A DNA stretch of 49,134 bases from Eubacteriales bacterium (GCA_045587785.1 JAZNDA010000053.1:1-49134); one strand, 5' to 3'. Numbered from the stretch's first letter, positions 1 to 13,393 are shown. A program made the numbers and translations. Notes: generated from the sequence alone by a model not told the origin.

Positions 1-365
<365 letters not shown>

Positions 366-1546: not shown

Positions 1547-1653
1547 TATTGCAAAATATTTATGTCATCGATTTTTTATATTGTATTGAAATAATTATAA
1601 TTTTCTGATATAATCATATGTAGAAACCGGAAGTTTGCAAGGAGCGATATAAA

Positions 1654-1890
1654 ATGAAAAAGAAGTATGGCTTGGTGACCTTACTTTGGATAGGTATTGT
1701 CTTGCTTTGGTTATCTGTCATCCTTGCGGTGATCGCGACCGCCAACAAGGATGTGATCGGCGGGGCAGATCTATCAACCTTTTTGTTTGTTTTCTCTTGT
1801 GAAAATCGAGGGGTGTATTCCATACTTGCATTTTTTGGTTTGTTTATTATGATCGCATCTGCTATTCTGCTGAAAATAAAACGCAAATGA
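1654..1890 (+). CDS. Small integral membrane protein (78 aa, 2-3 predicted TM helices), function unknown
   Basis: Hydrophobic composition and an AAGGAG-like RBS. I recognise no family. Confidence 0.55.
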   Translation: MKKKYGLVTLLWIGIVLLWLSVILAVIATANKDVIGGADLSTFLFVFSCENRGVYSILAFFGLFIMIASAILLKIKRK

Positions 1891-1905
1891 TTACGGAGGT
1901 TTGCC

Positions 1906-2511
1906 ATGAAAAAGCTTTTTATTGTTTTGGGCGCGCTTTTGCTTGTATTCCTTGTCACATGGGGCATATGCGAGACTGTGGGAAGTGATTACTATAATTA
2001 TGCAGGCTACATAACCGATATTAAGGAAAACCAAAGCGGCGAGACGGTACTTGTGACCTTGTCGGGTAACGTAGAGTCGGAATTTACGGTCAAATGGCAC
2101 ACCAGAAAATCCGCACCGCGCAAGCAGCCGTTTATGGTTGGGGACCGCATTTTGCTTTCCACCACTCATTTCAGTGATAAAAATATCAAAAAACTTAAGA
2201 TAGAGGTTGGCTATTCCTCCACAGGTAAGCTGTTTTACGCCGAGGGACTTGACACACCGTTTATTTTGACGGCGGGAGAGGACACGGGCGAGAGGAGATA
2301 TATGATCAGCTTCATTACGCATGACGACAGTATTCTTGCCGATGCCAAAATGGGCGATAAAGTGAGGGTTTATCATGCTTTTCCTATGACGATAGCCGCA
2401 CCGACCGTGATTGCGGAAGCAGGGACGGTGCTTGAAAAAGGGACAGAACAGCCGTTTGATGCAGAGGAGATCGCTTTTATTGAATCCAAAGGCTATAGCG
2501 TGGAGAAATAA
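1906..2511 (+). CDS. Hypothetical signal-anchored/secreted protein (201 aa)
   Basis: N-terminal hydrophobic signal (MKKLFIVLGALLLVFLV) and RBS GGAGG. The gene abuts the next gene. No family recognised. Confidence 0.55.
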   Translation: MKKLFIVLGALLLVFLVTWGICETVGSDYYNYAGYITDIKENQSGETVLVTLSGNVESEFTVKWHTRKSAPRKQPFMVGDRILLSTTHFSDKNIKKLKIEVGYSSTGKLFYAEGLDTPFILTAGEDTGERRYMISFITHDDSILADAKMGDKVRVYHAFPMTIAAPTVIAEAGTVLEKGTEQPFDAEEIAFIESKGYSVEK

Positions 2512-3339
2512 ATGATCAAAACATTATATATTTCCGACCTTGACGGCACGTTGCTTGATCGGCAGGCGGAGCTGTCTCGGGAGACCGTGGCGGAGCTAAA
2601 CCGTTTTATACAAAACGGCATACATTTTTCGGTCGCAACCGCGCGGACAGCGGCGACCTGCGAGCGCATTTTGTCGGGTGTAAATTTTCAAATTCCCGTG
2701 GTTTTGATGAACGGGGTGTTGATCTACAATATGTCATCGAAAATCTATGTCAAAAAGCATGTTTTGCCTACGGAGACCGTAACTAAAATATGTGACATCA
2801 TGCATCGGACAGACGTGAGCGGTCTGATGTACACGCTTGAGGGCGAGCGCCTTGCCACCTATTATGAGAAGATCTCGGGAGAAGCCATGCGCGCTTTTAT
2901 CGACGAGCGTGTGAAAAAGTACAACAAGCCGTTTTACCCTGTGTCTGACTTCATGGAAATCGGGCAGGACGTGATATATTTTGCTTTTATGGATAGTCAT
3001 GCGCGCATACATAAGCTTTTTGATCAAATTCGGGATATGGACGGAGTGCGCGTGGAAAAATACAGTGACGTCTACGAAAAGGATCTATGGTATATGGAAG
3101 TGTTTGCCGCGGCGGCGTCCAAATATCATGCGGTGCAGTATCTACGAGAAAAGTATGGCTTTGATAAGGTTGTTGCTTTTGGCGACAATCTGAATGATAT
3201 CCCTTTGTTTGAAGCAAGTGACGTCCGATATGCCGTAGGAAATGCCAAGGAAGAACTGAAGGCCATGGCGGATGCCGTAATAGAATCCAACACGGAGAAC
3301 GGCGTCGTGCGGCAAATACAAAGGATAGAGGAACTTTGA
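2512..3339 (+). CDS. Cof-type HAD-IIB family hydrolase (sugar-phosphate phosphatase-like)
   Basis: HAD motif I is DLDGTLL. The C-terminal GDNLNDIPLF motif and a ~275-aa length are typical of Cof/YidA proteins. Confidence 0.85.
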   Translation: MIKTLYISDLDGTLLDRQAELSRETVAELNRFIQNGIHFSVATARTAATCERILSGVNFQIPVVLMNGVLIYNMSSKIYVKKHVLPTETVTKICDIMHRTDVSGLMYTLEGERLATYYEKISGEAMRAFIDERVKKYNKPFYPVSDFMEIGQDVIYFAFMDSHARIHKLFDQIRDMDGVRVEKYSDVYEKDLWYMEVFAAAASKYHAVQYLREKYGFDKVVAFGDNLNDIPLFEASDVRYAVGNAKEELKAMADAVIESNTENGVVRQIQRIEEL

Positions 3340-4658
3340 TGGAAAGAAATCTGACGCTTGGCAGCGTGAAAAAGCATTATTTTAAATATCTCGGTGCGGC
3401 GTTCGGAAGTGCCATGATATCATGTGTATACGGGCTTGTGGATGCCGCGGTGGTTGGGCAGTATGAAGGCCCATCGGGGACGGCGGCGCTTTCTGTGGTG
3501 ATGCCCATCTGGACCATCATTTTCAGCCTTGGCTTGCTTGTCGGCATTGGCGGTTCTGTTCAGTATTCATATAACAAGTCGCAAGGCAAGCAGGACAAGG
3601 CGAACGCCTATTTTACCTTGTCGCTGATCATGACAGCGCTGATATCCCTCATATGCTGGCTTGGTATTGTTTTATTTGAGGAGCCGCTCCTTCGCTTGTT
3701 TGGCGCGGACGATGTTCTTTTGCCGCTCTGCAAGCGGTATTTGACCGCTGTGAAGTTTGTTATTCCGATTTACCCGTTCAGCCAGTTTTTGACAGCGTTT
3801 TTGCGTAATGACGATGCACCTGCGCTTGCCACTTTTTCTGTTCTGTTTGGCGGCGTATTTAACATTTTCGGGGACATTTTCTTTGTGTTTGATTTTGGCT
3901 TGGGGCTTGGCATGTTTGGTGCGGGACTTGCCACTGCCATGGGCGGCAGTGCCAGTGTTTTGCTGATGCTGACACACTTTTTCTCCCGTAAAAATACACT
4001 GAGGCTCACGAGTGTCTTTGGCGGTATTCGCAAGACGAAGCGTATTTTTGTGGGTGGCTTTTCTTCATTTATATCCGACATTGCTATGGGTGTGATCGCC
4101 ATGCTGTTCAACCGTCAGATCATGCACTATTTCGGCGCGGACGCGCTGGCGGTGTTTGGTGTGATCGTGCAGGTCAGCTGCATTGTGCAGTGCGCCACCT
4201 ATGGTATCGGACAGGCGGCACAGCCCTTGCTATCTCAAAACTATGGTGCGAATAAGTGGGACAGAGTGAAAGAAACCCAAAAGTACTCGCTTTATGTGGT
4301 TGCGTTTTTCAGTGTGCTGTGTACGGCGGCGGTTTTGCTGTATCCGACGTTTTTTGTCAGGGTCTTTATGTCGCCCACCGATGCGGTGCTTGCACTTGCG
4401 CCAAGCATTATGTGCGTGTACGCCCTCAGCTATCTTGCTCTGCCGCTCAATATTTATGCTACCTACTATTTTCAGTCGGTGATGCGAAATGGGACGGCAC
4501 TTGCGGTGTCTCTCATGCGCGGACTTGTGCTTTGCGGAATTTTTGTGTTTTTGTTTCCAATATGCTTTGGAGCAAGTACCTTGTGGTGGGTGATGCCGAT
4601 CACAGAGTTTTTTACGGCAGCATTTGTGTTGATCTCCTTTTCTAAAAAAAAGATATAA
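3336..4658 (+). CDS. MATE-family efflux transporter
   Basis: A 440-aa polytopic protein with about 12 hydrophobic segments. The N-terminal pattern is typical of MATE (KHYFKYLGAAFGSAMISCVYGLVDAAVVGQ). Its start overlaps the upstream stop by 4 nt. Confidence 0.8.
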   Translation: MMERNLTLGSVKKHYFKYLGAAFGSAMISCVYGLVDAAVVGQYEGPSGTAALSVVMPIWTIIFSLGLLVGIGGSVQYSYNKSQGKQDKANAYFTLSLIMTALISLICWLGIVLFEEPLLRLFGADDVLLPLCKRYLTAVKFVIPIYPFSQFLTAFLRNDDAPALATFSVLFGGVFNIFGDIFFVFDFGLGLGMFGAGLATAMGGSASVLLMLTHFFSRKNTLRLTSVFGGIRKTKRIFVGGFSSFISDIAMGVIAMLFNRQIMHYFGADALAVFGVIVQVSCIVQCATYGIGQAAQPLLSQNYGANKWDRVKETQKYSLYVVAFFSVLCTAAVLLYPTFFVRVFMSPTDAVLALAPSIMCVYALSYLALPLNIYATYYFQSVMRNGTALAVSLMRGLVLCGIFVFLFPICFGASTLWWVMPITEFFTAAFVLISFSKKKI

Positions 4659-4663
4659 AAATA

Positions 4664-4690
4664 GGCGTTGCCGATAGGCAACGCCGTTTT
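4664..4690. terminator. Bidirectional rho-independent terminator
   Basis: GGCGTTGCC-GATA-GGCAACGCC stem with an A-run on the left and GTTTT on the right. It serves the MATE gene on the + strand and whatever reads in from the right on the - strand. Confidence 0.85.
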
Positions 4691-4696
4691 CATTCT

Positions 4697-4740
4697 TCAA
4701 AAAGTGTTGTGGAAAGGTATCTGTCGCCCGTGTCGGGGAG
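4697..4740. repeat. Direct repeat, left copy (44 bp): a detached duplicate of the cysK 3' end
   Basis: TCAAAAAGTGTTGTGGAAAGGTATCTGTCGCCCGTGTCGGGGAG is identical to 7700..7743, 3003 bp away. The shared peptide [13 protein letters not shown] in ORFs 4668..4889 and 7707..7889 of the track confirms this. Read on the - strand it encodes [14 protein letters not shown], then E and a stop. Confidence 0.9.
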
Positions 4741-7699
4741 GTGGAGGCTCGCTGGCAGCATTGACAATGGCATCCACCTTCATTTTTGTTATATCGTTTC
4801 TTACTATTTCAAGCGCCATATATTATCTCCATATTTATTTCTTTTTTAGCAAAGTATATGATATGTTTGCTGATAGTTCATTTAATTGAACTCCTCAAAA
4901 AGCAATTAATTATTACTTAGATTTTGATACATCTTCATAAGCTCTGCTACGCAAGCAGATTCGGTGTTAAGTTTACCCCAAAAGCCGTAGGCCTGCATAA
5001 CCGCTTTATCATTTGCTTGATGAGCTTTGCGAAGTTCGGGCGGCATAACCACTTCATCGTAAAGGTCAGCCAAAGAACAATCGGGATAGAGCGCGCGAGC
5101 ATCAAGAATAGCTTGCGCGGTTTCCTCAATCTTCTTTTTCTGCTCAGTGGTAGGGTTACACCACGGGAAATTGTTATAAACAATATCCTTTGCATAGCGG
5201 TAATCACTCTTTAATCTTCCACACACTGTACGCATCCAAGCCATATGAACATTGGATGTTAATATTCCAAAGTGAAATAATGTAGCATCAGGTATTAAGA
5301 ATACAAGATTGCTTGCAATGACCTCATTTGATACAAAGCCTATCGGAATATATCTTCTTTTTTCAGAAGATGCACTTGGAACAATAATATAATCAGTGTC
5401 GGGTTGGGCTATCTGACAAAACAGCGTTGGGCTATCTGCAAATTTTCTTGTTCCTGCCGCGATGCTATTAGCTCGAAAATCGCGGACACTTTCAACACGG
5501 CGCATAACTGTTGGACATTGTTTTAATTCGTGAGGATTTGCACCTACCATCCAAAGACACCAACGAGATTTGTTGTTGATAAATTCATACGCGCCAACAT
5601 ACGGACGAATCCATTTTGCAGCCAAAGGCTCTTTCTTTAATAATTCATCTTTTTCTTCATCGGAAAGAATAAACCCACCTCCGTCACGAGGCATACTACC
5701 AAATCTAATTTTAGGTATGTCACAGAGAGGATTCGTTCTGTTTTCAACGAAAATATTGGGAGCTTCGGCAAGATACGAATTTATATTTTCAACGTATCTA
5801 ACTAAATCGTTGTCATACAATGCTTTTTTTGCTCTATTCCAAAGAGAGAACCCAACTATGACACAATGAACGTGCGCCTTTACTTTTGCCTCACTATCCC
5901 AAATAAATGTACGATGCGCAAACTGAATACGAACACCCTTTTCAAAAAGCGGTTTCCATATAGTAACTGCTTGTTGTCCTTGACAAATAGAGTTTGTCGA
6001 TACGAACGCAACTGCGACCCTTGTTCCTCGAATATATTCTGCCGCCTTGTAGTACCAAGCAGCTACATAGTCCAATTCGCCAAGACCTTTCACATCACCA
6101 ATTGCAGACAGCATATCCGCTTTCTGTTCCTTTGTTGCCATCATTCCACCAATAAACGGCGGATTGCCCATAATATAATCAAGCTTGTCCTTCGGTACGA
6201 CGGTTTCCCAATCGGTGCGCAGCGCGTTGCCCTCTACAATATTGGCGTAGGATTTCAAAGGCAGGAAATCGAGATTGGTGTTCATAATCTCCTCGGTTTC
6301 CTTCATCATCTGCGATTCTGCAATCCAAAGTGCCGTCTTAGCAACGGTTACAGCGAAGTCATTGATCTCAATTCCGTAGAACTGACCGATGGATACTTTG
6401 ATAACGTCACCGAAGTCAAGAAGCATCTGTCCGCCGGTTACAAGCTCAAGGGCATCATTCTCCAAGCGGCGCAAAGATATATAGGTTTCGGTTAAGAAGT
6501 TACCCGAGCCACAAGCGGGATCGAAGAAAGTCAGCTTCGACAGCTTTTCGCGGAAGGCTTCTGCCTTATCGTTGCGGATCTTCGGCACCTTTAGCGCCTT
6601 GATCTCATCAAATTCCTCACGAAGTTCGTCAAGGAACAGCGGATCAATCACCTTATGAATGTTCTCGATAGATGTATAGTGCATACCACCACTGCGACGT
6701 GTTTCGGGGTTCAATGTGGACTCAAATACCGCACCGAAAATCGTGGGGCTGATCTGCGACCAATCGAAATCCTCACTTGCTTTGTGCAAGAGCAGGTCAA
6801 CAATTTCTTGTGTAAAATTTGGGATTTCAATATTCTCATCGGCAAACAAGCCGCCGTTTACATACGGGAAGGATGCCAAAACCTCATCCATATAGGGATC
6901 GCGCTCCTCGGTCTTGGTGTCGAGAACACGGAACAACTCTATGAGTGCACGGCGCACGTCCTTGGGCGCAAAGCTCTTGATATAATTATGGAATTTGAGG
7001 TGTTCACCAAAGATACCTGAATCCTCTGCATAGAGGCAGAAAACAAGGCGCACGCAAAGAATGTTAAGGCTGTGAAGCGAAGCTTTATCGTCGGGGTGTA
7101 TGTACTGCCTCAGAATAGCGTCGTAGAGCTTTCCAACGAGTTCACCCGCTTGAATGGAAATCTGTTCTTCGCGGTGCAAAAGCTCGCTCTTTTCCTCAAC
7201 GAGAAACTGCAAGCGGTAGTATTCCTTTGAAAGATCCTTCAGCAAAATGCTTTCCGGCTCGCCCGTAGGCTTTTCCATATCGTAGATAAGGAATTCTTCA
7301 AAGTTGCAAGTGATGATCCAACGAGGGCGTTGCGAATACGGCAACGCAGCGGAGTATCTCTGCGCCTGCTGAAAAGGGTTGAGCAAGGTTCCGTCCGATT
7401 GACGAATGGGGCTGCGAAGGTTCAAGCCCTTCTTTTTCTGCTCGATGAGCACATGTGTTGAGGGGATATGTCCGTCAATAAAGCTTGTATGGTCGAGTTT
7501 CACGCGCTCCTCAAACAATATAAACTTTTCGGGTTCTGCAACGCCGAGAACGTCACGAACAAGGGCGAGCCAAAAGGATTGGCTGTCGCTCTTTTCGTCA
7601 CCACGGTCTTTCCAATATTCCGCAAAGTCTTTCGCCGCTTTCTTTCTATCTGCTTCTGTCATATCTTTTCCTCTTACTTTATTTTGTTAATCTCAGCCC
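4741..7699 (-). mobile_element. ~3-kb inserted island carrying only a Type IIL R-M gene, bounded by the 44-bp direct repeats
   Basis: The island sits between two identical 44-mers, inside what would otherwise be a cysK / terminator / MATE junction. It looks lower in GC than cysK and glnN: sampled lines are 35-50% versus about 55%. It holds a single ORF plus a 165-bp AT-rich tail, with no integrase or transposase. Confidence 0.6.
4906..7662 (-). CDS. MmeI-family Type IIL restriction-modification enzyme (fused endonuclease, N6-adenine methyltransferase and target-recognition domain)
   Basis: At 918 aa it is close to MmeI (919 aa), and it aligns by eye along its whole length with the MmeI sequence as I remember it. 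The N-terminal D-x10-E-x-K motif is FIDGHIPSTHVLIEQKKKG. The SAM motif is FFDPACGSGNFL and the catalytic motif is GNPPF. The C-terminal block ...SDYRYAKDIVYNNFPW... and YDEVVMPPELRKAHQANDKAV are also present. Confidence 0.85.
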   Translation of the reverse strand: MTEADRKKAAKDFAEYWKDRGDEKSDSQSFWLALVRDVLGVAEPEKFILFEERVKLDHTSFIDGHIPSTHVLIEQKKKGLNLRSPIRQSDGTLLNPFQQAQRYSAALPYSQRPRWIITCNFEEFLIYDMEKPTGEPESILLKDLSKEYYRLQFLVEEKSELLHREEQISIQAGELVGKLYDAILRQYIHPDDKASLHSLNILCVRLVFCLYAEDSGIFGEHLKFHNYIKSFAPKDVRRALIELFRVLDTKTEERDPYMDEVLASFPYVNGGLFADENIEIPNFTQEIVDLLLHKASEDFDWSQISPTIFGAVFESTLNPETRRSGGMHYTSIENIHKVIDPLFLDELREEFDEIKALKVPKIRNDKAEAFREKLSKLTFFDPACGSGNFLTETYISLRRLENDALELVTGGQMLLDFGDVIKVSIGQFYGIEINDFAVTVAKTALWIAESQMMKETEEIMNTNLDFLPLKSYANIVEGNALRTDWETVVPKDKLDYIMGNPPFIGGMMATKEQKADMLSAIGDVKGLGELDYVAAWYYKAAEYIRGTRVAVAFVSTNSICQGQQAVTIWKPLFEKGVRIQFAHRTFIWDSEAKVKAHVHCVIVGFSLWNRAKKALYDNDLVRYVENINSYLAEAPNIFVENRTNPLCDIPKIRFGSMPRDGGGFILSDEEKDELLKKEPLAAKWIRPYVGAYEFINNKSRWCLWMVGANPHELKQCPTVMRRVESVRDFRANSIAAGTRKFADSPTLFCQIAQPDTDYIIVPSASSEKRRYIPIGFVSNEVIASNLVFLIPDATLFHFGILTSNVHMAWMRTVCGRLKSDYRYAKDIVYNNFPWCNPTTEQKKKIEETAQAILDARALYPDCSLADLYDEVVMPPELRKAHQANDKAVMQAYGFWGKLNTESACVAELMKMYQNLSNN

Positions 7700-8628
7700 T
7701 CAAAAAGTGTTGTGGAAAGGTATCTGTCGCCCGTGTCGGGGAGCAGGACAACAATGTTTTTGCCCTTGTTCTCGGGGCGCATGGCAAGCAAAAGTGCCGC
7801 GTGCGCTGCCGCACCAGAGGAAATGCCCACCAAAAAGCCCTCGCTTTTTCCGATCCTGCGGCTCATGGCGTAGGCATCTGCGTCTGTGACGGGGATGATC
7901 TCGTCATAGATTTCGGTGTTCAGAATATCGGGGACAAAGCCCGCGCCGATGCCTTGCAGACCGTGCGCGCCCGCCTTGTTTCCCGACAGCACAGCCGAGG
8001 TCTCGGGCTCGACTGCCACGATTTTGATACTCGGATTTTTGGATTTCAGATATTCGCCCACGCCCGTGATAGTACCGCCCGTGCCGACGCCTGCCACAAA
8101 AACGTCAACCTCACCGTCTGTGTCCGCCCAGATCTCGGGCCCCGTTGTTGCTCGGTGCGCCTCGGGATTGGAGGGGTTTACAAACTGTCCCGCCACAAAG
8201 CTATGGGGAATTTCCTTTGACAGCTCTTCCGCCTTTTCGATAGCTCCGCTCATGCCCCTCTTGCCGTCGGTCAAGACAAGCTCCGCGCCATATGCCTTCA
8301 TGATCTGGCGGCGCTCCTTGGACATGGTCTCGGGCATGACGATAATGAGGCGATAGCCGCGTGCGGCGGCAACCGATGCCAGACCAATGCCCGTATTTCC
8401 GCTGGTCGGCTCAATGATCACCGAATCCTCTTTGAGGATCCCTTTTTTTTCGGCATCGTCAAGCATGGCTTTTGCCACTCTGTCCTTGACCGAACCTGCG
8501 GGATTGAAATACTCAAGCTTAGCAAAAATCTTAGCTTGCAGGTTCTCCTGCGCTTCTATGTGTGTCAGCTCCAAAAGGGGCGTTCTGCCGATTATTTGAT
8601 CGATCGATGTATAAATGTTTTTTGACAT
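7693..8628 (-). CDS. cysK: Cysteine synthase A (O-acetylserine sulfhydrylase)
   Basis: 311 aa. PLP-lysine motif [20 protein letters not shown], and the glycine loop [10 protein letters not shown]. Confidence 0.95.
7700..7743. repeat. Direct repeat, right copy (44 bp): part of the intact cysK 3' end
   Basis: Identical to 4697..4740. It encodes residues ...[14 protein letters not shown] of CysK. Confidence 0.9.
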
Positions 8629-8658
8629 AATATATTATTCCCTCTTGCCTATGTATGC

Positions 8659-10761
8659 TCAAATGCTGAACAGCATTTCGCCGTAAGTGGGGAAGGGCCA
8701 GTGCTCGGTGTCGGTCAAGGTCTCCATTTCGTCCACCGCCATGCGCAGCTTTTGCATGAGCGGAATAACTGTGTCGCGGTACAGCTCGGCTCTCTTTTCA
8801 TGATCCGCTTCGCGTGCCGCCTTGGTCTCTGCCGCTTTCAGATCGTTCGTTATGCGGTAGGCGTTGCGATTGAGCGCACTAAGCCTGTCGGCAAGAGATC
8901 TTTCCACAGCACTTGCCGTTTCGGCAAAGCCTGCCTGCGCTTTTGCCACGATACCGTCGGCAAGCTCCTTGGTGTATCGGTTGACGGCGGGGATGATGTC
9001 ATGGGTTGCCATATCTATCATGGTGAGTGCTTCGATGTTGATGATCTTGGCGTAATTTTCAAAAAGGATCTCGCGGCGGGATGACATCTCGATCTCGTTC
9101 ATGACACCTTGGCTCCTAAACAGTGCCACGTTTTCGGGTGAGGTAAAGCATTTGTAAGCGGAAACCGAGTCTTTAAGATTGGGAAGTCCGCGTTCTGCCG
9201 CCTCTTTTTCCCACTCGGCGGAATAGCCGTTGCCGCGGAAAATAATACGCTTGTGAGCGGTAAAGGTCTCCTTGATGATGGCGGCGACCTCTTTGTCAAA
9301 GCTTGTCTGGGGGGCAAGATTTTCCAGTCTGTCGGCAAAGCCACCAAGCTCCTCAGCAACAGCGGTGTTGAGCACAATGTTGGGGAGTGCTATATTTTGC
9401 GACGAACCGAGCATGCGGAACTCAAACTTGTTTCCCGTAAAAGCAAAGGGAGAGGTACGGTTGCGGTCGGTGGTATCCTTACGGAACACGGGAACGGTGG
9501 GAACGCCGAGGTCCATCATGCCTGCGCGGTTAGATTTGTAATTTGTGCCCTTGACGATCGAATCGATCACTGCCTCAAGCTCCTCGCCAAGGAACATGGA
9601 AACGATGGCGGGCGGTGCCTCATCCGCGCCAAGTCGGTGGTCGTTGCCTGCATAGGCGACCGAAATTCTCATCAGCGGCGCATATTCGTCCACCGCCTTG
9701 ACTACAGCGGCGAGGAAGAGCAGGAACTGCGCGTTCTCCTCGGGCGTTTTTCCAGGGTCAAGAAGGTTTTTGCCCGTATCGGTGGAGATCGACCAGTTGT
9801 TGTGCTTGCCCGAGCCGTTGATGCCCTCAAAGGGCTTTTCGTGAAGCAGACATTTTAGACCGTTTTGCTGTGCCACAAGCTTCATGAATTCCATGGTGAG
9901 AAGATTCTGGTCAACGGCAAGATTGGTGGTGGTAAAGATGGGAGCCAGCTCATGCTGAGCGGGTGCGGCTTCGTTGTGCTTGGTCTTGGCGTTGATACCC
10001 AGCTTCCAGAGCTCGGTATCCAGCTCGCACATGAATTTGCTGATTCTCGGCTTTAGGGGACCGAAATAATGATCCTCAAGCTCCTGTCCCTTGGGGGCGG
10101 ATGCGCCGAACAGCGTTCTGCCGCAGTAAAGAAGGTCGCGACGCTTGTCATACATGCCCTTATCGATCAAAAAGTATTCTTGCTCCGCGCCAACGGTGGT
10201 GTTGACACGCTTTGCCGTTGTATCGCCGAACAGACGGACGATACGGAGTGCCTGCTTGCCGATGGCATCCATCGAGCGGAGCAGGGGAGTTTTGGTGTCC
10301 AGTGCCTCGCCCGTATAGGAGCAATACGCGGTGGGAATATACAGCGTTTTGTCCTTGACAAAAGCGTAGGATGCGGGATCCCACGCGGTATAACCGCGCG
10401 CCTCAAAGGTGGCTCTGAGACCGCCCGAGGGGAAGGAAGAAGCATCCGATTCGCCCTTGATCAGCTCTTTGCCGGAAAATTCCATGACGATCTTACTGCC
10501 GCCCACGGGGGAGATAAAGGCATCGTGCTTTTCGGCAGTTACGCCCGTCAGAGGCTGGAACCAGTGGGTGTAGTGTGTCGCACCTTTTTCAATTGCCCAG
10601 TCCTTCATGGCGGTTGCCACTACGTTTGCGATCGAGGGATCTATGGTTTTTCCTTCGGCAATGGTTTTGATAAGAGATTTATAAACGTCATGGGGAAGCT
10701 TTTCGCGCATGGCATCGTCCCCAAAAACCATACATCCGAAAAATTCGGGTACACTTTTCAT
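8659..10761 (-). CDS. glnN: Glutamine synthetase, type III
   Basis: 700 aa. The N-terminus (FGCMVFGDDAMREKLPHDVYKSL...THYTHWFQPLTG) and the overall length are characteristic of GSIII. Confidence 0.9.
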   Translation of the reverse strand: MKSVPEFFGCMVFGDDAMREKLPHDVYKSLIKTIAEGKTIDPSIANVVATAMKDWAIEKGATHYTHWFQPLTGVTAEKHDAFISPVGGSKIVMEFSGKELIKGESDASSFPSGGLRATFEARGYTAWDPASYAFVKDKTLYIPTAYCSYTGEALDTKTPLLRSMDAIGKQALRIVRLFGDTTAKRVNTTVGAEQEYFLIDKGMYDKRRDLLYCGRTLFGASAPKGQELEDHYFGPLKPRISKFMCELDTELWKLGINAKTKHNEAAPAQHELAPIFTTTNLAVDQNLLTMEFMKLVAQQNGLKCLLHEKPFEGINGSGKHNNWSISTDTGKNLLDPGKTPEENAQFLLFLAAVVKAVDEYAPLMRISVAYAGNDHRLGADEAPPAIVSMFLGEELEAVIDSIVKGTNYKSNRAGMMDLGVPTVPVFRKDTTDRNRTSPFAFTGNKFEFRMLGSSQNIALPNIVLNTAVAEELGGFADRLENLAPQTSFDKEVAAIIKETFTAHKRIIFRGNGYSAEWEKEAAERGLPNLKDSVSAYKCFTSPENVALFRSQGVMNEIEMSSRREILFENYAKIINIEALTMIDMATHDIIPAVNRYTKELADGIVAKAQAGFAETASAVERSLADRLSALNRNAYRITNDLKAAETKAAREADHEKRAELYRDTVIPLMQKLRMAVDEMETLTDTEHWPFPTYGEMLFSI

Positions 10762-10802
10762 CGGAATATTCCTTTCAAGAAATAATAATTCATTTTATTA
10801 TA

Positions 10803-12890
10803 CTACTTTTTTCGAGGTTTGTCAATGGTTTTTGCTTGGGAAGCCGCCCGATCCAGCAAACCGAGTGCGATCTCGGCGTCTTTTTGGGCAAGTGCTTGCA
10901 GATGAGCCTGCTTCATACGGAAATGTGCCGAGATCTCACGGCGTGTTGTGGGCAGAGAGAGTCCTGCGTATGCCATGCTTGTGAAGGCGGTGATCTTGGG
11001 GTCATCCGAAATGCCGAGCATAGGAGCGCCCATGTCAAACGCTAAGATCAAGGCGTGCAGGCGTGCGGAGACCACCAACGTGGCGTGACGGATGAGGGAA
11101 AATACGGCTTTTTGCGAACTGTCGCGGACAAGGGTCACCTGCTTGCCTTGTTTTTCAAGAAGGGATGCCAGCTTCTCTGTGGCTGTCGTGTCGCTTTGTA
11201 CGTCCATAACGGCAAGAACGATGGGCAGATCCTCTCTCTTTAAAAATGAAAGCATGGGGGCAAGCTGACGGTCTCTGACAAACGCAAGGATATATTTTTG
11301 GCAGGTTGCTCCTTTCAAACGGTAAGCGGCAACGGGGTCGGCAGACAAAAAAAGACGCTTATGGTGTACCGTTTTTTTTAGAAGCCGATAGGAAACGGGA
11401 TCGCGTGCCGTTATAACATCGACTTTTTTAAGAGCGTGACAGCAAAGCCGCCATGGCAGCTTGCCGTAGATAGGACCCAGCCCTGAGGCGTACAGCATGC
11501 ACGGGGTGCCGAAAAAGTGTGCGATCTCAAGGAGAAAAAGATAATAAAGCAGAGAGCGGTTGCTGGTCTTGTTTTGGAGCAAGGACCCGCCGCCAAGGAT
11601 AAAAACGCCCGTATGACGTATGGCGTGTATACACCGAATAAGATCAAAACGCCGCACGGCGGAAAGGGAAGGATGCGGCACGTCGCTCCGAGTGAGCACC
11701 GAAATGCGCGGCGGAGTATGAGAGCCTTGCGCCTTGTTCAGACGGTCAACAATGGCACATAATGTCAGCTCATCCCCAAGGTTGCCGTAGCCGTAATAGC
11801 CGCCCAGTAAAACGTCGCTTGTGCGTGTTGCCGCGGCATCGGCTATGGCGGCGCGGTAAACGTTAAGTGTTTGCCGCGCCATTTGCTCGGCGGTGTGATA
11901 TTTTCTGACCTGCGCCATGCCGTCCGCAGCCGCCTTGCGAGCCAGATCGGGGTCATGATAAAGACGGCAAATATCAAAATACAATCTCTTGGCAGTTGGT
12001 CTGCTTTGACCGCGTGCGCAAAAATTTCCTCTTTCGGCTTCCTTCATCACGCCCTTTTCGCAAATACCCAAATAGCCCTCGTTTCCGCTGAGAATGACGG
12101 GCACACCGCAGCTCATGGCCTCCAGTGCCGCGCGTGAGACACCAACGAACAGATCACAGTTTTGCAGATAGGGGAGAACGTTCTGCTTTTGACCGATCGC
12201 TCTGACCGCCAAATAACCGCACGCTCTGTTGGCAAGCGCGGCAAGGCGACGTATCTTGCACAGGTCACTGCCGCCGCCGATCACAGTGATGCAAAGTCCT
12301 CCGATCTTTTTCGAAAGTCTCGGCGCCAAATGACAGAGCAACTCTGCCGTTAAAGAACAATCGGCATCAAGACGGCTTATGGTAACGATGTGAAAATTGT
12401 TTATTCTGTCTCGTTTGGGACAAAAACGAACGATATCGATGCCGTTAGGGATGATAACAATATTTTCCTTTGGTACATCAAACCGCTTTGTCAGATGCTC
12501 GGCTATATCGTGGCTGACGGCAATATTACGTCTTGGGAAAAACGTGAGAGCCTTTTTTGCGGCATTGGTGGAAAAGTGCGCGTGCGCGGTAAATACAAGC
12601 GGAAAATGGAACAGGGGATGAAGGATCTGACAAATAAACAGACTTTGTCTGGTGTGAGCATGCACCACATGCGGTTTGACCCTTCGTATAACATCGGCAA
12701 GGGTATGAAGCGGTATTCTTCCGTAGCGCACCGTGCGGATGCCCATGGCAGAGAGCTCTTTAGCGATCTGTCCGCCGTAAGACAAAACTGTGACAGAATG
12801 TCCCAAATGAGACAAAAAGCGCGAAAGCTCAAAAATGTGAGTTTCCGCGCCGCCGCTGTTCATATGGTCAGCTAACAGTAATATTTTCAT
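10803..12890 (-). CDS. Fusion protein: GT4-family glycosyltransferase (N-terminal) plus CsaB-type polysaccharide pyruvyl transferase (C-terminal)
   Basis: The N-terminus MKILLLADHMNSGGAETHIFELSR and a later E-x7-E-like region fit GT4. From about residue 355 the sequence is VLLGGYYGYGNLGDELTL...ILGGGSLLQN...ARLHALI, as in CsaB/PS_pyruv_trans. Confidence 0.75.
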   Translation of the reverse strand: MKILLLADHMNSGGAETHIFELSRFLSHLGHSVTVLSYGGQIAKELSAMGIRTVRYGRIPLHTLADVIRRVKPHVVHAHTRQSLFICQILHPLFHFPLVFTAHAHFSTNAAKKALTFFPRRNIAVSHDIAEHLTKRFDVPKENIVIIPNGIDIVRFCPKRDRINNFHIVTISRLDADCSLTAELLCHLAPRLSKKIGGLCITVIGGGSDLCKIRRLAALANRACGYLAVRAIGQKQNVLPYLQNCDLFVGVSRAALEAMSCGVPVILSGNEGYLGICEKGVMKEAERGNFCARGQSRPTAKRLYFDICRLYHDPDLARKAAADGMAQVRKYHTAEQMARQTLNVYRAAIADAAATRTSDVLLGGYYGYGNLGDELTLCAIVDRLNKAQGSHTPPRISVLTRSDVPHPSLSAVRRFDLIRCIHAIRHTGVFILGGGSLLQNKTSNRSLLYYLFLLEIAHFFGTPCMLYASGLGPIYGKLPWRLCCHALKKVDVITARDPVSYRLLKKTVHHKRLFLSADPVAAYRLKGATCQKYILAFVRDRQLAPMLSFLKREDLPIVLAVMDVQSDTTATEKLASLLEKQGKQVTLVRDSSQKAVFSLIRHATLVVSARLHALILAFDMGAPMLGISDDPKITAFTSMAYAGLSLPTTRREISAHFRMKQAHLQALAQKDAEIALGLLDRAASQAKTIDKPRKK

Positions 12891-13393
12891 GTGTTATCCT
12901 CAGTATTTGAATTTGGCGAGAGATAATCGGCAAGGTTGATGATATGTACTCCCTTTTTCTCGGCATAAGCACAGGTATATGCCGTGCCGCCGCGCTCACG
13001 TTTGCAAAAGGCGATGCAAACGTCACTGCCGTCCACCAGACGCCGATTCCGTTCGTGCATACATCCGCGTGTGAAGGTATCCGTTACGTATTCGATACTG
13101 TCCGCGCGCATAAGAATATCCTTGTACCTTGCCTTTTGTGCGCTGTTCCATCCCGCATCCTGCTCGCGGCAGGGAAGTATAAGCTCAAGGCGGATATTTC
13201 TGCCGTCCTCTTTTTTTTGAAGGACCGCCTCGGCGGCGAGTGTGTCAAAGCCAAGGGCACCGCCTGCTCTGAAAACAGTATACCCCACATTTATCATATT
13301 ATCCAACAGAACACCTAAAATATAGCAAAGCTTGTCCCCGTTTTCGGAAATAGCCCGATGTCCCGTGAAGCAACAGATTTTTGGTTCTTGCAT
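12887..13393 (-). CDS. SLOG-superfamily DUF1273 protein (YpsA-like)
   Basis: 168 aa. It has the CCFTGHR N-terminal signature and a Rossmann-like GG..GFD segment typical of DUF1273/YpsA. Its stop overlaps the next start (ATGA). Confidence 0.7.
   Translation of the reverse strand: MQEPKICCFTGHRAISENGDKLCYILGVLLDNMINVGYTVFRAGGALGFDTLAAEAVLQKKEDGRNIRLELILPCREQDAGWNSAQKARYKDILMRADSIEYVTDTFTRGCMHERNRRLVDGSDVCIAFCKRERGGTAYTCAYAEKKGVHIINLADYLSPNSNTEDNT

Follow-up and report, generated by a model that had tools for sequence, protein, structure and literature searches.

A lone MmeI-family restriction-modification gene at the end of cysK: probable insertion of foreign DNA with a 44-bp target duplication in an Eubacteriales genome

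How a restriction-modification (RM) gene can change its place without a recombinase has stayed unresolved ever since comparisons of genomes first pointed to long target duplications; this mode of insertion was reportedly described for RM genes of Helicobacter pylori by Nobusato and colleagues in 2000. The same question is raised by a contig of an Eubacteriales bacterium (GCA_045587785.1, JAZNDA010000053.1; 49,134 nt, the whole stretch being called the window here), in which a single RM gene of the MmeI family lies between a MATE efflux gene and cysK, the gene for cysteine synthase A, with a perfect 44-bp direct repeat on either side. A preliminary description of this locus, made from the sequence alone, read the arrangement as an insertion with long target duplication. 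Our comparison with related loci supported that reading, and we consider it probable, at roughly 70%, that the window records a recent insertion of foreign DNA that was joined illegitimately and duplicated 44 bp of its target.

The duplicated end of cysK and the empty site in relatives

The 44-mer (TCAAAAAGTGTTGTGGAAAGGTATCTGTCGCCCGTGTCGGGGAG) occurred exactly twice in the 49-kb window, with 0 mismatches between copies whose starts lie 3003 bp apart (Table 1), which agreed with the preliminary description and made it the longest direct repeat of the region. No third copy was found in the window with up to 3 mismatches allowed (0 of 100 shuffles matched), and among ~100 related loci, the whole genome lying outside this comparison, the 44-mer was seen only as orthologous cysK tails. 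The dispersed repeat that the preliminary description had named as a possible objection was therefore not what these loci contained.

The right copy was the end of an intact cysK, as had been claimed, and the left copy lay 6-11 nt from a terminator hairpin. On the minus strand the left copy still read through to LFEE*, whereas the cysK protein of the window now ends LFEG*. The A GAA TGA downstream of the left copy and the hairpin beside it aligned with those of relatives, so the left copy was correctly described as an ancestral-looking cysK end beside a bidirectional terminator. By replacing A GAA TGA with G GGC TGA, the insert cost cysK only its last residue, in agreement with the earlier claim of preservation, and this residue is variable among relatives in any case (D, A, E or G). 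The hairpin is predicted to have been the terminator common to MATE and cysK before the insertion and to be now the sole terminator downstream of cysK and MmeI.

The preliminary description predicted that a relative without the insertion would carry one copy of the 44-mer, with cysK ending next to the terminator, and such a site was found. In L099 (JGI 3300041568; cysK 90% identical in amino acids, aa), MATE, the terminator and cysK followed one another with nothing between them, cysK ended LFED* and abutted the terminator and MATE, and a single 44-nt target was present. The gene order of L099 (YpsA-glycosyltransferase-glnA3-cysK> <MATE<HAD...AraC...23S) was that of the window minus the insert, and synteny extended over 12 kb on both sides, the flanks being conserved housekeeping genes. 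By blastn, window positions 7700-13258 aligned to L099 2-5595 (82%) and window positions 1570-4740 to L099 5552-8728 (81%); the two flank alignments overlapped on L099 at exactly 5552-5595, one 44-nt target. A second empty site, again consisting of MATE, terminator and cysK, was present in L017 (MATE 82% aa). With both L099 and L017 empty, the alternative that all relatives carry the arrangement of the window, also raised in the preliminary description, did not hold.

The polarity of the event and its breakpoints followed from a four-way alignment, in which the sequence upstream of the repeat matched the relatives at the right copy only, and the sequence downstream (A GAA TGA and the terminator) matched them at the left copy only. 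DNA was gained in the window, between two joints placed to the base. The two copies were identical to each other at 44 of 44 positions, whereas 3 positions separated them from L099 and 5 from L017, which dates the duplication to after the splits between these species. The empty-site comparison was one between species (about 82% nt identity), not within one species.

Several other observations concerned the same neighborhood. The whole stretch from the rRNA gene to cysK and glnA3 was syntenic, and L099 and a further relative, L056, also ended in 23S sequence. Two Logan contigs, L015 (end at 1487; MATE 95% aa) and L016 (end at 2257; MATE 84% aa), stopped 6-7 nt after the MATE stop codon, at the hairpin, and these ends were probably assembly-graph breaks at the palindrome that hide the site of interest. 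When metagenome contigs were scanned with degenerate codons for the end of cysK, only distant cysK genes (~65% nt identity) were returned, all ending LFE* or LFD*. One protein that scored as a near-identical cysK, P0242, was rejected as a distant cysK with an internal duplication; P0242, P0263 and P0266 (348-411 aa) all had internal partial PALP duplications, and their inflated scores mimicked near-identity to the query.

Furuta, Abe and Kobayashi (2010, Nucleic Acids Research 38:2428; PMC2853133) recognized such insertions by restriction and modification functions both lying within an insert of <20 kb, by the absence of any other mobile element, and by flanking repeats of >30 bp that align to a single copy in a related genome. 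The window showed each of these features, with both functions inside an insert of 2,959 bp that carries no mobility gene, repeats of 44 bp and a single copy in the relatives.

The inserted segment and the source of its DNA

The preliminary description stated that only a 918-aa ORF (open reading frame) and a 165-bp AT-rich tail lie between the repeats. The ORF was indeed the only real gene, and the tail, far from featureless, resolved into a spacer, a fragment of a macrodomain gene and filler nucleotides. In the 918-aa protein the Pfam domains MmeI_N, MmeI_hel, MmeI_Mtase, MmeI_TRD and MmeI_C followed one another in order (PF20464, PF20465, PF20473, PF20466 and PF20467; E 1e-22 to 1e-90, all above cut-offs), and the match to PDB 5HR4 (MmeI) was collinear over the full length (residues 6-916 to 9-903, E 4e-217). 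In enzymes of this family a single chain of about 920 aa carries, in this order, MmeI_N, a helical spacer, a gamma-class N6A methyltransferase, a target recognition domain and a C-terminal domain. They cleave 20/18 nt from an asymmetric site and methylate one strand, and their catalytic motifs are an N-terminal D-X(9-10)-E-X-K, an S-adenosylmethionine-binding FxDPACGSG and NPPF/Y. The translation contained FIDGHIPSTHVLIEQK, FFDPACGSGNF and GNPPF. Nuclease motif, methyltransferase motifs and target recognition domain (TRD) were thus all in one chain, placing both the restriction and the modification function inside the insert, and the enzyme is presumed to be active.

The insert carried no mobility gene. 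Its only other ORF of at least 200 codons was antisense to MmeI, the other ORFs tested had no Pfam match, and no recombinase domain was found by the Pfam search in any ORF besides MmeI. Terminal inverted repeats were likewise not found at the insert ends, which scored 5.5 against 5.8 +/- 0.9 in shuffles. The earlier observation that integrase, transposase and terminal inverted repeats are missing was thereby confirmed.

The sequence evidence marked the insert as foreign through its base composition, the company kept by its closest homologues and the macrodomain fragment. The GC content had been described as lower than that of the flanks, and the difference was real and modest (0.440 against 0.466 in the left and 0.528 in the right flank); at third codon positions (GC3) it was 0.46 in MmeI against 0.65 in cysK, 0.65 in glnA3 and 0.58 in MATE. 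More than 8000 MmeI homologues were found, and the closest proteins (91% aa) belonged to other organisms, where they lay in elements with serine recombinases, a relaxase and MobC or beside a small resolvase; one of them, P0005 (91% aa), adjoined a resolvase and had no macrodomain gene. DNA similarity to the closest copies covered the ORF and about 10-20 nt of leader only. A scan of GTDB representatives gave 301 MmeI relatives, the best of them 85% identical and 0 from the species of the window.

The captured macrodomain fragment is the best clue to how the foreign DNA arrived. Over 68 nt it matched, with 98.5% identity, the beginning of an intact 341-aa Macro (PF01661) gene that lies downstream of MmeI in L036, a Clostridia metagenome-assembled genome (MAG), and it was 91-94% identical to the beginnings of the macrodomain genes of L044, L032 and L049; its best PDB matches were all N-termini of macrodomains of the MacroD/YmdB type. 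In all four loci (L036, L032, L044 and L049) a macrodomain gene or stub stood 2.5-3.4 kb downstream of the MmeI homologue. In the window the homology ended after codon 24, and after the filler the left 44-mer followed out of frame. A complete macrodomain fold was not present in the insert: with the first 24 codons only, in a 40-aa ORF that has no Pfam match, this is a gene fragment, and the chimeric ORF probably yields a translated junk peptide. Since a stub is present and the homology ends inside the macrodomain gene, the insert reads as a fragment of the MmeI...macrodomain neighborhood of another genome. Its sequence marks it as an arbitrary fragment of a donor defense island and not as a defined element. 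An intragenomic source of the fragment was rejected, as the window held no macrodomain gene or other copy of the insert flanks.

The filler offered a further hint. With the next C included, the filler sequence (CCTCCACC) formed the reverse complement of GGTGGAGG, the glycine-loop codons ~15 nt further into the macrodomain gene of the relatives. This complementarity may be the trace of a template switch, a hint and not a demonstration. The 86-nt spacer had no similar sequence in 80+ MmeI loci or elsewhere in the window.

The neighborhoods spanning MmeI and the macrodomain gene (L044 6000-11395, L049 6000-11383, L036 8769-13202 and L032 11278-11913) framed a variable slot of defense type, occupied by DUF6602 and FRG in L036 and by an OLD-family AAA_15+TOPRIM ATPase with a 190-aa protein in L044 and L049. 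In the last two, the block ended in a 33-codon macrodomain stub and stood in two different chromosomal contexts, and the common homology started exactly at the MmeI ATG.

The MmeI gene itself varied by segment among relatives. L020 was 80-96% identical to the window gene in nucleotides (mostly at least 85%) in the first ~1400 nt and 51-61% identical in the TRD (about 1500-2400), and L001 was 72-92% identical throughout the gene (coordinates 1-2760). This pattern is consistent with a mosaic family in which TRDs are swapped by recombination.

Table 1. Positions of the insert, its parts and the flanking genes in the window.
Feature	Position	Strand	Basis and remarks
23S rRNA gene, 3' end	1-365	+	Rfam LSU_rRNA_bacteria, 371 bits
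MATE efflux gene	3339-4658	+	ORF and Pfam MatE; converges on cysK, left chromosomal flank; orthologue adjoins cysK in L099 and L017
Bidirectional rho-independent terminator hairpin	4659-4690 (extended arms; stem 4664-4685)	both	Inverted repeat; predicted terminator on both strands, directly after MATE
Last 7 nt of old cysK (A GAA TGA, ..E-E-stop)	4690-4696	-	Left beside terminator; aligned with L099 (A GAT TAA) and L017 (A GCA TAA)
Left 44-bp target copy	4697-4740	-	Relic cysK tail, now outside any gene; aligns to L099 5552-5595
Chimeric ORF, 40 aa, with good ribosome-binding site (RBS; GGAGATAATATATG)	4697-4819	-	Macrodomain gene start, filler and frameshifted cysK tail; ends just before old terminator
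Whole insert, 2,959 bp	4741-7699	-	Absent from L099 and L017; breakpoints from two blastn alignments to L099 and four-way alignment
Junction filler, 7 nt (CCTCCAC on minus strand)	4741-4747	-	Matches neither macrodomain genes (L036, L044, L032, L049) nor cysK orthologues
Macrodomain gene 5' fragment, ATG + 24 codons, MALEIVRNDITKMKVDAIVNAASE	4748-4819	-	Nucleotide match to L036 macrodomain gene; PDB matches
AT-rich spacer, 86 nt	4820-4905	-	From MmeI stop to macrodomain start codon
MmeI-family (Type IIL / IIG) single-chain RM gene, intact, 918 aa	4906-7662	-	ORF, Pfam, PDB 5HR4
Insert right end	7663-7699	-	30-nt leader with RBS (AGAGGAAAAG) and 7 nt G GGC TGA finishing cysK (..E-G-stop)
cysK (cysteine synthase A), intact, 311 aa	7693-8628	-	ORF and Pfam PALP; right chromosomal flank
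Right 44-bp target copy	7700-7743	-	Serves as cysK codons 296-310

Joining of the segment and competing explanations

In the reading that we prefer, a piece of 2,959 bp from the MmeI...macrodomain defense neighborhood of another Clostridia genome would have been joined between MATE and cysK. The fragment would have carried MmeI with its short leader, the 86-nt spacer and the first 24 codons of the neighboring macrodomain gene. One joint lies 51 nt and the other 7 nt before cysK originally ended, and the 44 bp between these points of the target are now found on both sides; cysK was kept whole by a new last codon and stop supplied by the insert. No element-encoded recombinase took part in this reading, and the truncated passenger gene, the 7 filler nucleotides and the lack of conserved end sequences suggest that the joints were illegitimate. 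The chemistry could have involved breaks that were staggered and then filled in, two sister copies with different break points to which the fragment was joined, or a template switch during replication.

Transcripts that start at the cysK promoter would, after the insertion, continue through MmeI and end at the old bidirectional terminator (4685-4664). A promoter-like site was present on the minus strand upstream of cysK (8662-8634), and between the cysK stop and the old terminator no promoter- or terminator-like site was found on that strand except weak ones inside the MmeI ORF. As MmeI appeared to have neither a promoter nor a terminator of its own, co-transcription with cysK and termination at the old hairpin were the probable outcome. 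A housekeeping operon could thus gain a defense gene that borrows its promoter and terminator.

The preliminary description also suggested that other copies of the gene might be bracketed by duplicated sequence. In 80 MmeI loci for which both flanks were available, we searched the 600 nt to each side of the gene for direct repeats; besides the window, three loci (L079, L069 and L097) had flanking repeats of at least 32 nt, two of which were accepted. In L079 a 43-nt repeat (42/43; 5888-5930 and 8834-8876) lay 71 nt before the MmeI ATG and 29 nt after the stop; it corresponded to the terminator hairpin of the upstream gene. A promoter-leader common to the unrelated L061 began 3 nt after its first copy and marks the left end of the MmeI unit. 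In L069 a 39-nt repeat (36/39; 5843-5881 and 8864-8902) lay at -120/+95 of MmeI, again as the terminator hairpin of the upstream gene. Repeats of 43 and 39 nt thus bracketed the gene in L079 and L069; L097 was rejected, since there the same 32-mer occurred three times in 7.5 kb as a dispersed repeat. This REP-like sequence (CCTACAGAACAAACCCCAAAAYATGCCGTAGG; 1-32, 2028-2059 and 3078-3109) had one copy inside the MmeI ORF, which is longer there.

Flanking duplications of ~40 nt are therefore recurrent in the MmeI family, and L079 and L069 are candidate additional insertions of this kind. No sequence or motif was common to the three repeats (window, L079 and L069), which speaks for the duplication of varied targets and against the action of a site-specific recombinase.

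A second MmeI gene at the end of a cysK was found in L056 (Oscillospiraceae MAG SIG645, SVRO01000007.1; 5040-8942), where it started 28 nt after the cysK stop. L056 was syntenic with the window across the glycosyltransferase, glnA3 (89% aa) and cysK (82% aa), and its MmeI, of a different TRD type from that of the window, had its own terminator followed by the 3' end of the 23S rRNA gene, sitting in place of the whole AraC...HAD-MATE block. Two histories that would connect the loci were considered and found no support. A cysK-MmeI junction inherited in common was suggested by similarity in the 30-nt leader; this similarity only tied with that of the unrelated L041 (among 84 loci), and ~22 nt of the leader were also common to L020, so that leader similarity belongs to the MmeI unit and is no proof of a common junction. 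Homologous import from an L056-like donor did not agree with the right copy, which keeps the recipient's sequence until 7 nt before cysK ends and from which L056 differed at 8 of 44 positions.

Several points weigh against the preferred reading. Illegitimate insertion at random would not be expected to strike one cysK end in two related species, as in the window and L056; the coincidence could stem from a preference for the site, from selection for expression by read-through or from a site-specific step that escaped detection. The donor locus (MmeI, 86 nt, macrodomain gene) was not found; a scan of viral contigs returned only 4 distant MmeI loci and none of the donor type. Exact look-ups of the MATE (with two start codons), MmeI and cysK proteins gave no match, and no conspecific genome was found, so that both empty sites belong to other species. 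The junctions are those of the assembly, and the repeats of L069 and L079 are terminator hairpins. The new cysK end keeps both frame and stop position, as it would if the insert had arrived with a donor cysK tail. The new and old last 7 nt matched at 4 of 7 positions, with a chance probability of about 0.07, and therefore do not prove that such a tail came along.

Secondary spread of an existing unit, which we considered unlikely, would give the same structure. The unit would have been excised as a circle via its repeats in a strain of the same species and re-integrated at an empty cysK by a Campbell-type crossover within the 44 bp, which would account for the perfect repeats and the sharp boundary between G GGC TGA and A GAA TGA. 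Against this route, 44 bp comes close to the shortest homology that RecA-dependent crossover can use, and neither a second strain nor a circle junction nor a further copy of the 44-mer turned up in the exact look-ups, the metagenome scan or the ~100 related loci. Furuta et al. (PMC2853133) proposed a cycle of this kind, in which the repeats allow the unit to be amplified and released, but the route would only defer the origin of the first duplication.

A more doubtful possibility is that MmeI units are recurrently self-mobile in gut Clostridia. The ~20-nt reach of the enzyme's cleavage, or breaks that it provokes, would then give breakpoints ~40-46 bp apart, preferentially at gene 3' ends or terminators. 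The duplications of 44, 43 and 39 nt at three unrelated loci, the 46-47-bp cases in the literature and L056 are compatible with such mobility and do not demonstrate it. If it were true, enzyme-made breaks would give long target duplication a concrete, testable cause.

We judged it very unlikely that the insert is the remnant or satellite of a site-specific integrative element that used the cysK 3' end as its attachment site, with the 44-mer as identity block, a substitute cysK end brought in by the insert and a recombinase acting in trans or later deleted. Serine recombinases or resolvases do adjoin the closest MmeI homologues (91% aa), but DNA similarity to these recombinase-linked copies ended at the ORF, and no recombinase was found in the insert or in the conserved syntenic flanks. 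With the insert in place the reading frame is regained and the stop falls at an unchanged offset, and integration at gene 3' ends with repeats of >30 bp is typical of integrases, as discussed in PMC2853133; the far joint, however, runs through a truncated passenger gene and 7 filler nt, with no defined element end. The presence of MmeI at the cysK 3' end in L056 would also fit an attachment site, but the 180 nt leading up to the syntenic 23S rRNA gene there contained no second cysK tail, and the repeats of L069, L079 and the window have no attachment core in common.

An ancestral MmeI gene lost from the relatives by recombination between the repeats is scarcely credible. Such a deletion would leave exactly the empty site of L099 and L017, and a third lineage, L056, has MmeI there, but the non-coding left copy is still identical to the coding copy at 44/44 positions, against 3 and 5 differences from the orthologues and an identity of just ~82% in the flanks; the lower GC3, the stray macrodomain fragment and L056, with its different TRD and no repeat, also oppose it. 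An assembly artefact, a metagenomic contig misjoined via a short common sequence, is just as improbable: the source seems poorly sampled and related contigs break at the neighboring hairpin, but two independent false joins would have had to place foreign DNA precisely between two copies of the 44-mer, assemblers usually collapse repeats at k-mers longer than 44 nt, L099 is collinear with both flanks, and similar structures occur in the independent assemblies of L069 and L079. The signs of an insertion sequence or transposon were not seen, as inverted repeats did not exceed the shuffled expectation and the duplication is 44 bp versus the short duplications (2-14 bp) of such elements.

Comparison with known systems

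The window enzyme resembled MmeI (PDB 5HR4) in its full-length collinearity and its five Pfam domains, and its TRD is one of several exchangeable types in the family. A literature search found no paper linking MmeI-family genes to target duplications. The locus is like integrase attachment (att) systems in having repeats of tens of base pairs and a gene 3' end rebuilt by the incoming sequence. It is unlike them in lacking a recombinase and a common core, and in having, at one of its joints, filler and a foreign gene that is cut short.

The illegitimate or homology-facilitated illegitimate recombination of transforming DNA, reportedly described by de Vries and Wackernagel and by Prudhomme and colleagues, both in 2002, offers another parallel. 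There, as here, the incoming DNA is an arbitrary foreign fragment, the points of joining lack homology, and filler or microhomology may be present. The window differs in having no detectable homologous anchor tract, the right copy being of the recipient type up to the joint; moreover, both of these processes usually delete recipient DNA and do not duplicate it.

The likeness to insertion with long target duplication, as set out by Furuta et al. (PMC2853133), covers several features: a lone RM gene within repeats of >30 bp, a single copy in the relative, no integrase or transposase, varied targets and a lower GC content. The article reports long target duplication for RM types I-IV, including Type IIG in Thermus and one Gram-positive genus, describes the earlier H. 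pylori cases as all Type IIS, suggests double-strand breakage as a common cause and proposes a life cycle that uses the repeats. Two Haemophilus influenzae cases given there, whose 46-bp repeats reach 15 and 2 bp into the 3' end of a gene, have almost the same geometry as the window insertion.

The present case is unusually legible, with perfect repeats, breakpoints exact to the base against a syntenic empty site, and a donor-gene stub followed by 7 filler nucleotides. By comparison with the cases in PMC2853133, the window differs in its host, one of the uncultured gut/rumen-type Clostridia, in its cargo, a single-chain MmeI-family gene, and in being compared between species. It also differs in its repeat, which lies wholly inside coding sequence, in an insert that rebuilds the gene end, and in carrying a piece of a donor neighbor gene with filler nucleotides, a feature that we did not see reported in the sections of that article that we read. 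If our reading is correct, this locus would add uncultured gut/rumen-type Clostridia and single-chain enzymes of the MmeI type to the known range of insertion with long target duplication, with two more loci hinting at its recurrence.

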